Shown piece after piece: positions 24,151-29,244 of a DNA stretch of 42,285 bases (position 1 is its first letter; every line of letters starts with the position of its first letter). Under the pieces are notes generated by a model. The model had not been told where the DNA came from and did no database searches. It saw nothing but the letters and a program-made list of their open reading frames with translations. The stretch comes from a virus (Duplodnaviria > Heunggongvirae > Uroviricota > Caudoviricetes), in the IMG/VR virus record IMGVR_UViG_2778261056_000004, positions 1 to 42,285 of that record. One strand, given 5' to 3'. The translations under genes and the position numbers were made by a program.

Positions 24151-24390
24151 TCATTTCACAGCGTTGTACCAGGCTTGCCAACGATATTTATCGAGGCGCA
24201 GCTGCTGAAGGCATTGCGCAGTTTCGATATCAGCCTGCAGATCATCATCGCTATTGGTGCCAGCGTTACTTCCCCTGCACGGCTCCTGCATCAAATCCGC
24301 TGATGGAGTTGGCAGCGTCGATTGCACGCTGGCGCAGCTGCACAGCAGCATCGTCAAACTGGCACACAGTACGATCCGGAGACTGAACAT
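24151..24390 (-). CDS. Rz1-like outer-membrane spanin (overlapped frame)
   Basis: ORF in alternate frame overlapping the 3' end of the Rz-like gene; hydrophobic N-terminus with Cys (MLLCSCAS), Pro-containing mature region. Confidence 0.4.
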   Translation of the reverse strand: MFSLRIVLCASLTMLLCSCASVQSTLPTPSADLMQEPCRGSNAGTNSDDDLQADIETAQCLQQLRLDKYRWQAWYNAVK

Positions 24391-24616
24391 ATTTCACCAC
24401 GTCGCGGGTAATGGTTCGGTAAATCACTTTGCCCTCGATGGTCGCTGCAGCGGCTTTTACTTCAACCGGCTGGATGACCTTCTCGGCGTTCTCTTTCTTC
24501 TTTGCTGCCAGCGCGTTGATATGGTCAGCGTGCGCGCTCCAGCCAGAACGCCAGGCGATTGCACCAGTGACAGAGATGGCGACCACCAGCGCCAGCAGAA
24601 CGTAACGCAGCCTCAT
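24266..24616 (-). CDS. Rz-like inner-membrane spanin
   Basis: N-terminal TM helix LLALVVAISVTGAIAW, then charged periplasmic region; start overlaps endolysin stop. Confidence 0.55.
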   Translation of the reverse strand: MRLRYVLLALVVAISVTGAIAWRSGWSAHADHINALAAKKKENAEKVIQPVEVKAAAATIEGKVIYRTITRDVVKYVQSPDRTVCQFDDAAVQLRQRAIDAANSISGFDAGAVQGK

Positions 24617-25227
24617 GACAGCGCCGCCTGCGCCCGGCTGTAACGCACCTTACGGTCAGCCAGCCCATTCTGCCCACCGTTGATGATCTGGGTGACACGC
24701 ACTATATCGCCGGAATACAGCAGGCAACCGCGTAATGCGAAGAACCAGGCAGCCGACCGGGCAGCGTGTAGCTCCTGCTCCAGCAACTCGGGCGTGCTCA
24801 CCAGATCCAGCTTCAGCGCTGCACCGCATTTGGTGTAGTTCTCACGCCCGGTGATCTGCAGCAGGCCACGGCCACGATATTTCCAGCCGTCGCCCTCGGC
24901 GATGTTGCCCATGCGGCTGCCGTATACCAGGTTGGCGATCTGCGGCTGGTGGGCGGTCTGCTTATTGTCGACACGGCCCAGCATCTCGCACTGGTACGGC
25001 GTCAGGCGCTTACCGAAAGTTTTCTTCAGGCCGTCTACCGAATAGTTGAAGTTCTCCACCAGCGAGGTAAAGCCTGCCGACTCGTGGCCCACCTGCGCGA
25101 TGAACATGGCCTGATCGTTAACTGCGGTGATGCCGAACTCTTTCATTGCTGCGTCGATATGCGGATACCAGCGCGCAGCTAATTCGGCGCTTACCACAGC
25201 CGCCTTCTGAAATTGTGCCTGATTCAT
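24613..25227 (-). CDS. endolysin, glycoside hydrolase family 19 (chitinase-like)
   Basis: FIAQVGHESAGF, YRGRGLLQITGRENY motifs; start MNQAQFQK at 25227 with RBS AAGGAA; track N-terminal extension overlaps the holin. Confidence 0.8.
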   Translation of the reverse strand: MNQAQFQKAAVVSAELAARWYPHIDAAMKEFGITAVNDQAMFIAQVGHESAGFTSLVENFNYSVDGLKKTFGKRLTPYQCEMLGRVDNKQTAHQPQIANLVYGSRMGNIAEGDGWKYRGRGLLQITGRENYTKCGAALKLDLVSTPELLEQELHAARSAAWFFALRGCLLYSGDIVRVTQIINGGQNGLADRKVRYSRAQAALS

Positions 25228-25235
25228 AGAGTTCC

Positions 25236-25571
25236 TTACTTGGTGTCGCCACCAAAGCGGACGTTGATAACTCGGTTTGCTACAGAACGGACCTGTTCGA
25301 CGCCGACAAAGCCCAGCGCCCCGCCGATTGCAATGGAGAGGGATTGAGGAAGGTTGACGTAATCCAGGGCGGATACAGCTGTTAACGTCATGGCGCCGCA
25401 CATCAGGCCTTCCAGCAACATCTTTCGCCAGCCACCGCCGACGTAGGCTATCCGCAATACCGCCATCGCTACGGAAAGCAGAACAGCGCCAATAGGCGTA
25501 TCACCGCGCCACCAGCCGTGGAGCAGATCAAGGAACTCCGTCCAGGAGTGCGGGTCATTGTTCATTTTCAT
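25236..25571 (-). CDS. holin, lambda S-like
   Basis: Dual-start MKM; AVLRIAYVGGGWRKMLLEGLMCGAM resembles lambda S [24 protein letters not shown]. Confidence 0.7.
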   Translation of the reverse strand: MKMNNDPHSWTEFLDLLHGWWRGDTPIGAVLLSVAMAVLRIAYVGGGWRKMLLEGLMCGAMTLTAVSALDYVNLPQSLSIAIGGALGFVGVEQVRSVANRVINVRFGGDTK

Positions 25572-25639: not shown

Positions 25640-26692
25640 TTATTCCCCTGCCAACGCCCGTATTTCCCCCAACGTCTGATTAAACCTTTCCTCTTCGAGT
25701 TCAACGCCAATAGCCTGGCGGCCAAGTTCCAGCGCGACTTTCACGGTCGAACCGGACCCCATAAAGAAATCAGCCACCACATCACCAGGCTTACTGCTGG
25801 CGTTGATGATCTGCCGCAACATGTCAGCGGGTTTTTCGCATGGGTGTTTACCTGGATAAAACTGAACGGGTTTATGTGTCCAGACGTCGGTATAAGGAAC
25901 GGATACGGAAACAGAGAAATGTCGCCGAAGTGATTTGTACTCTTCGAGCAGCTCTGAATACTTGCGATTCAACGAATGCCACATAGCCACCAGCTGGTGG
26001 TGTGGTGTTGCCAGTTCGCCGTTCTGGTTCTTTTCGTTGGCTACCTGCGTGAAAAGGGACTGAAGCTTCCGGTAGTCTGATTCATTCGGTAATTGCCACT
26101 GGCTACCGCTGAACCAGTGAGACACCATGTTCTTCTTTCCAGTCGCATCGGCTATTTGTTTTGAGGATATGCCAAGCGCTTCACGTGCATCCCGGAAATA
26201 AGAAATTAGGGGAGTCATTACATGCTGCTTCAGCTCGCTTCCCTTCTCAGCGTACCCATCGCTCTTTGGTTTATACGGCCCTTGGTAATGCTCAGCGAAA
26301 AGGATGCGCTCTGTTGCAGGGAAGTAAGAACGCAGGCTCTCTTTATTACAGCCATTCCAGCGGCCCGACGGTTTAGCCCAGATGATATGGTTCAGGACGT
26401 TGAACCGCTCACGCATCATGATCTCAATGTCTGCTGCCAGACGGTGACCGGAGAAAAGATAAAGACTGCCGGCAGGTTTAAGCACTCGCCAGAATTGTGC
26501 GAGGCACATATCAAGCCAGCGAAGATAATCCTCATCCCCTTTCCACTGATTGTCCCAGCCGTTGGGTTTCACTTTGAAGTACGGCGGATCCGTGACTATC
26601 AGGTCAATGGAGTTATCAGGGAGAGTGGCGATGTATTGCAGGCTATCAGCGTTGACTAACTCAACACTGTTTATATTTACAGTATTTTTCAT
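25640..26692 (-). CDS. DNA methyltransferase (N6-adenine/N4-cytosine, DPPY type), orphan
   Basis: Motif IV TDPPY near N-terminus and motif I FFMGSGST near C-terminus; no adjacent restriction enzyme gene. Confidence 0.8.
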   Translation of the reverse strand: MKNTVNINSVELVNADSLQYIATLPDNSIDLIVTDPPYFKVKPNGWDNQWKGDEDYLRWLDMCLAQFWRVLKPAGSLYLFSGHRLAADIEIMMRERFNVLNHIIWAKPSGRWNGCNKESLRSYFPATERILFAEHYQGPYKPKSDGYAEKGSELKQHVMTPLISYFRDAREALGISSKQIADATGKKNMVSHWFSGSQWQLPNESDYRKLQSLFTQVANEKNQNGELATPHHQLVAMWHSLNRKYSELLEEYKSLRRHFSVSVSVPYTDVWTHKPVQFYPGKHPCEKPADMLRQIINASSKPGDVVADFFMGSGSTVKVALELGRQAIGVELEEERFNQTLGEIRALAGE

Positions 26693-26862
26693 AGATCAAT
26701 AAGCGTAACTCTGATAGGCTCTCTTTGCTTTTGCGCTAAAGCAATGGGCCTTGGTTAGCTTGTGACCTGAAAGCATGAGCTGATGGCTGGTGGGTGCTCC
26801 AACATCCACCAGCCGCCCATTTTCACAGCAAAATACCTCCGAAATGGAGGTGCGAAGGCATA

Positions 26863-26886
26863 AAAAAACCCCGCTTAAGCGAGGTT
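26863..26886 (-). terminator. rho-independent terminator after the two-gene cassette
   Basis: Minus strand CCTCGCTTAAGCGGGGTTTTTTTAT. Confidence 0.5.
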
Positions 26887-26901
26887 ATTTCGAATAGATA
26901 A

Positions 26902-27306
26902 TCAAGCAGCAGGTTCGGATGGATAAACCTGCTCATACATCTGCTGAAGGGTGTCAATAGCTTTGTTAGCCATTATCAATATAGCTTCCGCATCAGCCTT
27001 ACTTAAAGTTCTATCAAGCTCGTAATCTGCCCATTTACGTCGGGTATGCAAATGTCTCAGCATTGTTCCCATAGAAATGAGTTTCATTTTTTCAAACGGC
27101 TCATTTCCTTTTAACCATGCATCATTTGTAAGATAGTCGCGAACAGCTTGGTGTGACGACTTGTTTGGGCATTTCTCAAGCTTATCAAGCGTTTCATGAT
27201 AAACTCCATAATACGCTCGACCAATGGCGTTTCTGTAACCGATTTCATCGTTGTGAGAAATGCATTTACCAGCAAAAACAATAAAATCTTTCCCCGATAC
27301 GCTCAT
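26902..27306 (-). CDS. hypothetical protein, 134 aa (weak HEPN-like R-x6-H motif)
   Basis: AT-rich, translationally coupled (ATGA) to upstream ORF; IGRAYYGVYHE motif; no family recognised. Confidence 0.4.
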   Translation of the reverse strand: MSVSGKDFIVFAGKCISHNDEIGYRNAIGRAYYGVYHETLDKLEKCPNKSSHQAVRDYLTNDAWLKGNEPFEKMKLISMGTMLRHLHTRRKWADYELDRTLSKADAEAILIMANKAIDTLQQMYEQVYPSEPAA

Positions 27307-28082
27307 CAGTAAATCCCTCTTTTTTCATCGCTTTGAAACCAGGATGTAAAAGGGCTGTTCCGATAACTATCATCTGAGAGCAAAACCAACAGTTCCATGT
27401 TCATTTCAGCTAAAACCTGCGGATCAGCAGTTTGGGCTCTAACGATGAATGCATTGTCATCATCTCCACCAAGATAATAGCTAACACTTGAACAGTTAAT
27501 ACCGCGCTTGTTCGCAATCTCTTCAGCTTGATCGCAAAGGGCTTCTAGTTCTCGAGAAGAAAGACGGGTAGCGTTTTTGAAATCAACAATCTGTTCAGCC
27601 ATATAATTTCCCTGATTGATTATATCCTCTCGCTCTTGGCCATCATAAAGAGCAGCCATTTTGAGGGAGAACTTTTTAACCAACTTGTCGTTGCCGATAC
27701 AAAATGCAGCGTTTCTTGCTACAAGCCTCAGTTCATGTGAAGGGAAAAGCTCAACTATTCTAAACAACTCAACGCGATGCTCATAGTTATGAGCCGAACG
27801 AGAAAGATACGCCAAGTAGTTTTGTGCGATCGTTGGACTCCCAGAGCTCATCGCGTCTTTGAATAAACGTACTGCATCAGAGTGACGCCCGAGAGTTCCA
27901 TTAAGCCATGCATACGCATGTGCGCGCTCACTTATTGGAAGTTTAGCAATGTCGCGCTCAATTTCCGCAATAGTGTCTGTATCCGGGACTTCTCCCTTCT
28001 GGAAGTAATCGAGGATTGTTGCAAGCAGTTCTTGTTCTTTTGACTCAGGCTGTCCTGACATAATTTTCCCGAAGAAAACCAA
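27306..28082 (-). CDS. hypothetical alpha-helical protein, 258 aa (start may be the second ATG, MSGQPESK)
   Basis: AT-rich ORF downstream of the putative late promoter/terminator; no family recognised. Confidence 0.4.
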   Translation of the reverse strand: MVFFGKIMSGQPESKEQELLATILDYFQKGEVPDTDTIAEIERDIAKLPISERAHAYAWLNGTLGRHSDAVRLFKDAMSSGSPTIAQNYLAYLSRSAHNYEHRVELFRIVELFPSHELRLVARNAAFCIGNDKLVKKFSLKMAALYDGQEREDIINQGNYMAEQIVDFKNATRLSSRELEALCDQAEEIANKRGINCSSVSYYLGGDDDNAFIVRAQTADPQVLAEMNMELLVLLSDDSYRNSPFTSWFQSDEKRGIY

Positions 28083-28412
28083 ATTCTGTATGTTTTCAAT
28101 AGCTTCACTGGATAGATTTTTATATTGCTGTCATCAGTATTGAAGCTTTTACGGGATTGTACAGGACCATCAGCGTTCTACTTGTGCATAAGAATTTAAT
28201 AAACCTACAGACTTATCCACAGAAAAAAGAGTTATCAACAAAAAAAGTTATTCACAACTTAACTAATAGCAAAATATTGTTGATAAGCTGTGCGTAATTA
28301 TCATATCCATCAAACTTACGCACATTAGAGCCTTGTGTTGCCTATCCATCGTTTTTTCCTATCAAAACGAAACGACATGCTTTTCTGCGATTAAAAAAGT
28401 ATTCCGCAAAAT

Positions 28413-28440
28413 TAAAAAACCCGCTCACTGGCGGGTTTAT
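28413..28440 (-). terminator. rho-independent terminator, candidate tR' downstream of a putative late promoter
   Basis: Minus strand AAACCCGCCAGTGAGCGGGTTTTTTAATTTT, about 45 nt after a -35/-10-like pair TTGCAA-N17-GATATT. Confidence 0.45.
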
Positions 28441-28530
28441 ATACTGTTGGCAACATATCAAATTAGCTTCAAATATCGCTTATTTTGTTGCATTTTGCAA
28501 GCCTGATTGAAGACGTTAGTGAAATTTACT

Positions 28531-29223
28531 TCACATTTCTACCACTTTCACTTCTTCATACTCTTCGTACCGCGCCAGGCTTTCACGTAACGCCAGGCTG
28601 TCCATTTCCACGAAAGCTGCTTTAAATGCTGCCCAGTGAGCAGCGTATACCCTGAGCCAGGTTGAACGCTCCACGCTCACCATGCGGGCCAGTGCCGCCC
28701 CCGCATATTCCTGGTACGTATCGTTATTGCGTGATGCTGCAACTTCCTGGGCCGCGAGCCAGACAAGCCCCACTAATTTTTTTGTGACTCTGTCCTGGAG
28801 CTTCTTACGGCCCTGCTGATGCTGAAACTGTGCCCAAACGTACTGGCACATCAACGTCTGGTACCGGAAAGACAGATCATATCCATAGCAATACCTGACC
28901 CACGCCTGCAGATGCTCTCCAAGGCCATTTACCGAGCGGCGCCACGCAGAACTCGCAAACTCGGCATCCTTCATAGGGGGTAATGGGCGTCGACGGCTTC
29001 TTGTCTCCAGAACATAAAGCGGAGTGGCCAGAGTTTTTACAACCTTCGATCCACAACCTTCCCCACCCTCCATGACGATTTCAGGATGGTGCCGAGGGTA
29101 TTTATTCTTATCTGCTGGTGGATGCTCACTGAACGCCTGCAGCTGTCCTTTTGTCGATCCTGATAAATCCGCCAGCGCGCGGCGCAGTTCAATCCGCGTA
29201 TATTCCAGTTCTTGTAAATTCAT
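28531..29223 (-). CDS. putative late-gene antitermination protein (Q-like)
   Basis: Position immediately upstream of the promoter/terminator pair and late genes; Cys/His-containing 230 aa protein; first ATG at 29223 (track start is TTG). Confidence 0.4.
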   Translation of the reverse strand: MNLQELEYTRIELRRALADLSGSTKGQLQAFSEHPPADKNKYPRHHPEIVMEGGEGCGSKVVKTLATPLYVLETRSRRRPLPPMKDAEFASSAWRRSVNGLGEHLQAWVRYCYGYDLSFRYQTLMCQYVWAQFQHQQGRKKLQDRVTKKLVGLVWLAAQEVAASRNNDTYQEYAGAALARMVSVERSTWLRVYAAHWAAFKAAFVEMDSLALRESLARYEEYEEVKVVEM

Positions 29224-29244
29224 TATGCTCAGCGCTCCATACAA

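Follow-up and report, generated by a model that had tools for sequence, protein, structure and literature searches.

Gene organization of the locus

The window (the whole stretch of 42,285 nucleotides analysed here) carries on its minus strand, in this order, the antitermination gene Q, a terminator, an AT-rich leader, two genes that we call A and B, a second terminator and a DNA methyltransferase gene, then the lysis genes for holin, endolysin and Rz (Table 1). An initial annotation made from the sequence had reported a pair of ORFs between 26902 and 28082, and both exist, on the minus strand. It had read A as a protein of 258 aa, which is the length of the ORF counted from a TTG codon. Counting from the ATG at 28061 gives 251 aa, in agreement with the RefSeq annotation (756 bp) and with the N-termini of all homologues, and this start was retained. 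The two genes had also been described as coupled through ATGA. The actual junction is TGATG (27304-27308), where the TGA stop and the ATG start overlap by 1 nt, an overlap of 4 nt being found in several homologues.

The segment is markedly AT-rich, as had been noted: the GC content is 0.38-0.46 in the two genes and 0.34 in the 300 nt upstream, against 0.50-0.63 in the flanking genes. Terminator-like sites were found 7 times for 1.6 expected. Both the terminator that had been proposed downstream of the pair and the Q-associated terminator upstream of it are real, and the cassette is inserted directly after the latter. The checks of genes, composition and terminators thus largely bear out the initial description, except for the ATGA junction, the length and supposedly all-helical nature of A, and the meaning given to an R-x6-H motif in B (see below).

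Table 1. Features of the cassette and of its neighbourhood in the window.
Feature	Coordinates	Strand	Basis or remark
Inserted cargo segment, 1,557 bp (leader, gene A, gene B, terminator)	26854..28410	-	Homology breaks relative to Flotzy and ECONIH5
Gene A, 251-aa partner protein	27306..28061	-	
Gene B, 134-aa HEPN domain of predicted HEPN-T/UPF0332 type	26902..27306	-	
AT-rich non-coding leader (~350 nt, about 34% GC), presumed promoter/regulatory region	28062..28410	-	Blocks conserved with L016-L018
Cassette's own intrinsic terminator (stem of 8 bp with 5 GC pairs, then a T-run)	26867..26886	-	Inside the inserted segment
Terminator downstream of Q, tR'-like, in the conserved flank	28417..28438	-	Cassette inserted directly after it
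Antitermination protein Q gene	28531..29244	-	RefSeq annotation of the near-identical locus L001, and ORF
N4/N6 DNA methyltransferase	25640..26692	-	Annotation of L001, L002 and L003, and ORF

A variable insertion between Q and the methyltransferase

The limits of the inserted segment were placed by comparison with two relatives. In phage Flotzy (L002), homology to the window ends at 26853 and restarts at 28411, with 51 bp in place of the insert. In E. coli ECONIH5 (L003), homology breaks at 26840 and 28408 and the content between these points differs. Both flanks are 95-97% identical in Flotzy and ECONIH5, and the flank 28411-28800 is common to the two. At the insertion point of the cassette, ECONIH5 carries an unrelated, unannotated gene of 159 aa on the opposite strand (L003:3320-3799). 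The presence of a different gene at the identical point confirms that the site between Q and the methyltransferase gene is a cargo hotspot. The initial annotation had proposed that this interval would prove to be variable cargo among relatives, and so it does, the cassette being absent from Flotzy and another gene occupying its place in ECONIH5. The version of the cassette present in the window was found in 12 of 5,426 complete E. coli genomes, each time in a chromosomal prophage. Neither protein matched a structural or nin-type family, and PHROGs returned only two families of unknown function for the pair, one of them for B.

Expression signals in the leader

The leader shares conserved blocks with L016-L018, the last of these being a 75%-identical cassette in another phage. 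A conserved TACAAT is located at 28156-28161, and a cluster of DnaA boxes sits just upstream of it. Three sites match the DnaA-box consensus (TTATNCACA) perfectly, at 28183-28191 (minus strand), 28213-28221 (plus strand) and 28248-28256 (plus strand), and a site with one mismatch (TTATCAACA) lies between the two plus-strand boxes. Of the four TTATNCACA matches found in the window (42 kb), where 1.17 are expected in all, three thus lie in the leader. The cluster is kept in L011-L018 and is missing upstream of the other cassette lineages. It was therefore rejected as a general feature of the cassette; in the lineage of the window, to which it is confined, it may tie expression of the cassette to DnaA.

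The dyad symmetries that had been reported upstream of the genes are present, and they are weak: the best one (28289-28324) has arms of 16 nt with 81% complementarity and has not been kept in L018, the 75%-identical cassette. The only tandem repeat in the cassette, of 19 bp in two copies, also lies in the leader. A search of the coding strand for a sigma-70 consensus promoter found none. The description of the locus as a moron in a classic cargo position holds for its presence or absence at a fixed site, its deviant composition and its own terminator; as to a promoter, the leader offers the conserved TACAAT and the DnaA boxes, with no consensus match.

The two genes run in the direction of the late operon, and the cassette may therefore be expressed mainly in lytic growth. 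It could accordingly be imagined that the pair, under Q-antiterminated late expression, serves the lytic cycle itself, with a part in taking over the host or in counter-defence; host RNAs might be cut, for instance, or nucleotide signals bound or sequestered by way of the HEPN fold. The position directly downstream of the Q-associated terminator, the location within late structural operons in other phages and the lack of a sigma-70 promoter on the coding strand would agree with such a role. We nevertheless consider it unlikely: essential late genes would have no need of a separate leader and terminator such as the cassette carries, close relatives without the cassette are viable (Flotzy is an isolated phage), and the known morons stx and bor occupy a similar type of site.

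The stretch of about 70 nt that separates the end of Q from the first terminator (28433-28501) is 77-84% conserved in the otherwise unrelated Q-phages L005, L007, L019 and L033. This conservation fits a late promoter followed by a Q-utilisation leader. The same segment gave a weak match to the Rfam Trp_leader family, below threshold, which probably reflects the terminator hairpin.

Gene B encodes a HEPN domain with a non-canonical putative active site

Taken alone, the B protein of the window had no match in Pfam or NCBIfam. We built a family profile from 24 relatives and compared it with the PDB. The profile matched 9xbd, a 'HEPN domain-containing protein' (E=3e-5), and 9xbc (1e-4), with AF0298 (2hsb) also listed. 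Individually, 8 of the 24 relatives match PF05168 (best 1.5e-5), and relatives are named 'HEPN domain-containing' or 'UPF0332' in the source databases. The AlphaFold2 model of B (pLDDT 93.7) is a five-helix bundle whose best Foldseek matches are the HEPN structures 2hsb, 2q00, 1ufb, 3o10 and 1wol; these similarities are modest (TM about 0.5, E 0.06-0.8), and the truncated AbiV structure 9bj7 is among the weak fold matches. Profile comparison and predicted fold place B among the HEPN domains of the HEPN-T/UPF0332 type (PF05168, AF0298-like). The initial statement that neither protein matches a known family is thus correct for A, which is new, and not for B. The pair had further been put forward as a defence cassette to be checked against PADLOC. 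No known defence system was recovered there: A had no match, and B reached only the HEPN component PDC-M05B at a sub-threshold level (0.012). Eight relatives of B match PDC-M05B, likewise below threshold (best 8.7e-5), and three match HEPN_IX. PDC-M05 is a pair of nucleotidyltransferase and HEPN genes that is a candidate system, itself unvalidated (PMC12988326).

Eleven residues of B are invariant (E21, R25, R30, Y32, Y33, H37, H52, Y58, R90, D94 and Y95), and all of them remain so in relatives at 35-43% identity. R90 does not vary among 24 close and 13 diverse members, and its counterpart in the 9xbd alignment is the R of RNRSDY. The canonical Rx4-6H motif is absent: the sequence reads R90-K-W-A-D94-Y95, with no His, and D94-Y95 stand at the position of the canonical His. 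In the model, the loop 43-51 leads into a helix that H52 opens, and E21 begins the helix 21-42. The same features have been described for AF0298-like HEPN-T domains and AbiV, in which the His of Rx4-6H is missing, often replaced by D, and an alternative conserved His is provided by the segment between helices 2 and 3, an acidic residue of helix 2 being close to the site (Anantharaman et al., PMC3710099). We conclude that B keeps a non-canonical putative active site made of R90, D94, H52 as the relocated His and E21 as the acid of helix 2, and catalysis is predicted from this set of residues. B had first been called HEPN-like on account of an R-x6-H motif. The HEPN assignment was right, but R30-x6-H37, located in helix 2, is not the HEPN motif, since the equivalent of H37 in 9xbd is a Tyr; the relevant residues are R90, D94 and Y95 together with H52. 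We know of no experiment or structure that shows RNase activity for the HEPN subgroup of B.

As the canonical His is missing, with D94 in its place, B could be non-catalytic. B would then be a dead HEPN and A a scaffold, the two forming a complex that has a regulatory or nucleotide-binding function and lacks toxin activity. Some HEPN domains are indeed non-catalytic binders (Anantharaman et al., PMC3710099), and HepS is an example of a HEPN protein that is non-toxic by default (PMC13043305). A non-catalytic role of this kind nevertheless seems to us very improbable, given that the 11 polar or aromatic residues kept at 35-43% identity include the very trio put forward as a substitute active site, namely the Arg, the alternative His and the acidic residue, and that AbiV, for which the same alternative His has been described, acts as an RNase (bioRxiv 2024.05.05.592566).

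Gene A encodes a fast-evolving protein without enzymatic signature

The A protein had been presented as alpha-helical. Its AlphaFold2 model (pLDDT 86.8) ends in an alpha/beta domain with three beta strands, so that the protein is not purely helical: a TPR-like region (about residues 8-136) is followed by two long helices (141-184) and by a beta-beta-alpha-beta domain (190-244). The N-terminal half shows the stacked helix-turn-helix repeats and the TPR profile or fold similarity by which TPR regions are recognised. The C-terminal part includes a conserved helix and strand (D..L.DMN..L, AWF). An exhaustive profile search of 1.84 billion representatives with A returned 71 clusters only, nearly all of 250-260 aa and matching from end to end. 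Across 47 diverse members, the family has no invariant column (0), which argues for a binding partner and against an enzyme. No significant match to A was found in Pfam, NCBIfam or PADLOC, and none to nucleotidyltransferases; a comparison of the A profile with PDB sequences likewise gave nothing significant (best 3dto, E=0.07). A pattern search of genome contigs for A returned 0 confirmed loci, which reflects a limit of the pattern search, as NCBI genomes do carry homologues.

We also considered A as a degenerate nucleotidyltransferase. This was rejected, the GGDDDN loop lying in a beta-hairpin without an intervening helix, and the family showing neither MNT matches nor any residue invariant throughout.

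A and B form a mobile cargo cassette of temperate phages

All 54 loci examined with either gene (53 fetched loci and the window) carry both A and B. The two genes mostly overlap or lie a few nt apart, and the pairing persists at about 18-24% identity in A (L042, L043, L045 and L046). The profile-based search listed 336 clusters of the B family across Enterobacterales. The pair was found in prophages of Escherichia, Klebsiella, Enterobacter, Citrobacter, Salmonella, Yersinia, Serratia, Morganella, Erwinia/Pantoea and Vibrio, and also in Klebsiella phage vB_Kpn_Chronis (gp57/gp58) and a Vibrio P2-like phage. Its genomic positions vary. The cassette is located between Q and the lysis genes in Escherichia, Morganella and Enterobacter, and inside the baseplate/tail module of E217/Pam3-like myovirus prophages; the E. 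coli variant of B at the latter site is indexed in about 1,485 assembly blocks. Other sites are the head-tail junction, prophage ends adjoining tail fibres or smpB, and the nin region. Most loci examined have, within 70 nt after B, a hairpin that resembles a terminator and whose sequence is specific to the lineage, and the 300 nt upstream of A are AT-rich across the loci examined. The pair is therefore a mobile two-gene cargo cassette of temperate phages.

Throughout the family, A diverges faster than B, with identities to the window proteins of 25.9% (A) versus 46.3% (B) in L005 and 75.3% versus 89.5% in L018. Coupled genes with a faster-evolving partner upstream are consistent with a type II toxin-antitoxin arrangement; A is larger than B and built of repeats, which is atypical of a classical type II antitoxin. 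This gene structure, together with the movement of the cassette between unrelated sites and phages and the classification of HEPN/MNT modules as toxin-antitoxin systems (PMC7641770; PMC13000451), could suggest a plain addiction module, with B as the toxin and A as the antitoxin, which would stabilise the prophage or spread selfishly and have no anti-phage role. Such a restricted function appears improbable to us: the pair was found only in phages and prophages, at cargo sites, and not on plasmids or chromosomal islands, and many prophage toxin-antitoxin systems prove to be defensive.

Comparison with known HEPN systems

The closest resemblance is with the HEPN-T/MNT modules (PF05168 with a PF01909-type MNT; PDC-M05; UPF0332, AF0298, 2hsb). 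The HEPN protein of these modules resembles B in having R-x3-D-Y instead of Rx4-6H, a relocated His and a similar length, about 125-135 aa, and the gene order is the same, the partner preceding the HEPN gene and overlapping it. The partner in these modules is, in contrast, a nucleotidyltransferase, whereas A has no MNT or PDC-M05A match and a predicted TPR plus alpha/beta fold, and a motif of the GS-x10-DxD type is not conserved across the A family. Since A is not a nucleotidyltransferase, neutralisation of B by AMPylation, which is the mode of control of HepT/MntA (PMC13000451), is unlikely. HepT/MntA of type VII (DUF86 HEPN) is likewise a two-gene HEPN toxin module with a conserved Tyr beside its catalytic motif, as B has with the invariant Y95. 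It belongs to a different HEPN family, with R-phi-xxxHxY where B has RKWADY, and the Tyr is there modified by MntA, an enzyme that the cassette does not have.

AbiV of Lactococcus is an RNase and abortive-infection effector with an RNA antitoxin (bioRxiv 2024.05.05.592566). It shares the alternative conserved His with AF0298-like HEPN-T domains (Anantharaman et al., PMC3710099) but measures about 200 aa and is paired with that RNA, whereas the partner of B is a conserved protein of about 250 aa. An Rfam scan of the cassette for an AbiV-like RNA antitoxin gave no match at the family threshold.

Prophage-borne HEPN nucleases have been proven to act as abortive-infection effectors, and two of them resemble B as HEPN proteins carried as cargo by lambdoid or temperate phages: HepS of Gifsy-1, a solo prophage HEPN triggered by tail-tip proteins (PMC13043305), and Tha of S. 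aureus prophages, triggered by phage tail proteins (PMC11087260). In such cases, self-targeting by the late proteins of the carrier must be avoided. The present module often lies within late or structural operons and would therefore also need a built-in way to ignore the late proteins of its own carrier. HepS differs by its canonical Rx4-6H and by acting alone, while B always comes with a second protein and has a non-canonical site.

DS-28, a system of E. coli predicted by DefensePredictor and validated, likewise consists of two genes, encoding a small HEPN protein and a hypothetical protein of 252 aa. It has no sequence relationship to A or B (hhalign probability 0.1% for both proteins), its gene order is opposite to that of the cassette and its HEPN protein has a canonical motif, RNSVAH. 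The RefSeq accessions of A and B were not found in the parts of the DefensePredictor supplement that were searched, and a literature search for the PDB codes and for the WP accessions of A and B found no mention of them.

A possible toxin/immunity module controlled by protein binding

HEPN nucleases are recurrent effectors of bacterial immunity, and the way in which they are restrained and triggered is the informative part. We hold with moderate confidence that the segment 26854-28410 is a self-contained moron encoding a two-protein module of the toxin/immunity type, with B as HEPN effector and A as non-enzymatic partner. In such a module, B would be a small HEPN-T domain that probably dimerises into an RNase, with an active site formed by R90, the relocated H52 and the helix-2 acid E21 in place of the canonical Rx4-6H. 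A, translated just before B from one message, would be a TPR plus alpha/beta protein filling the place that the nucleotidyltransferase (MNT) antitoxin has in classical HEPN-T modules. If the cassette is expressed in the lysogen, A would bind B and hold it inactive. As A looks non-enzymatic, this control would be exerted by binding, through occlusion of the site or a block of HEPN dimerisation, and not by AMPylation as in HepT/MntA. The TPR surface of A is a natural candidate for the sensor of a phage product. If A were lost, or if an infecting phage made a product that engages this surface, B would be released and could then cut RNA, so that either the infection would be aborted or cells losing the prophage would be killed. 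We infer from these features that the cassette may have a role in defence or abortive infection.

More tentatively, A and B could represent a new prophage-borne immune family, in which a fast-evolving, non-enzymatic TPR sensor/antitoxin, instead of an AMPylating nucleotidyltransferase, is combined with a His-relocated HEPN-T RNase; we regard this broader proposal as possible but doubtful. B is a recognisable member of a known HEPN family, and as an effector class it is familiar. A and the A-B pairing are absent from Pfam, NCBIfam, PADLOC v2 and the papers searched, and the PHROGs entries have no annotated function. A type of HEPN usually paired with a nucleotidyltransferase is thus locked here to an undescribed TPR protein. 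Should the module be defensive, it would add a family missing from PADLOC-DB v2.0, provide a tractable case of a non-canonical HEPN site under protein-based rather than AMPylation-based control, and help to explain the cargo of the Q-to-lysis hotspot, which is also the home of Shiga toxin genes. Should it not be, it would still be a widespread and strictly paired accessory module of phages.

Cassette variants and mosaicism of the neighbouring lysis region

Two variants of the cassette deserve mention. That of the E. coli prophage L053 (L053:4237-5402) is present in none (0) of the complete E. coli genomes, and CRISPR spacers that match 33-36-nt pieces of it at 100% identity, corresponding to three protospacers, occur in 146 of the 5,426 genomes. 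Further CRISPR matches are located elsewhere in the L053 phage, so that the target appears to be the whole phage and not the cassette specifically. In Klebsiella phage ST405-OXA48phi1.3 (L054:2501-2896), the B homologue is annotated as two short ORFs (2553-2684 and 2681-2896) and the match to B covers residues 1-113 only, with the upstream A-like gene (1780-2517) intact. The HEPN gene of this phage may be frameshifted or inactivated.

The region adjoining the cassette in the window also varies between close relatives. The lysis region (24350-25100) is GC-rich (0.58-0.63), with the endolysin ORF at 24613-25401. The otherwise near-identical prophage of strain 1368KP (L001:3576-4872) has a set of lysozyme, holin and lysis-protein genes of different sizes, which suggests that the lysis module next to the cassette has been replaced by mosaic exchange.
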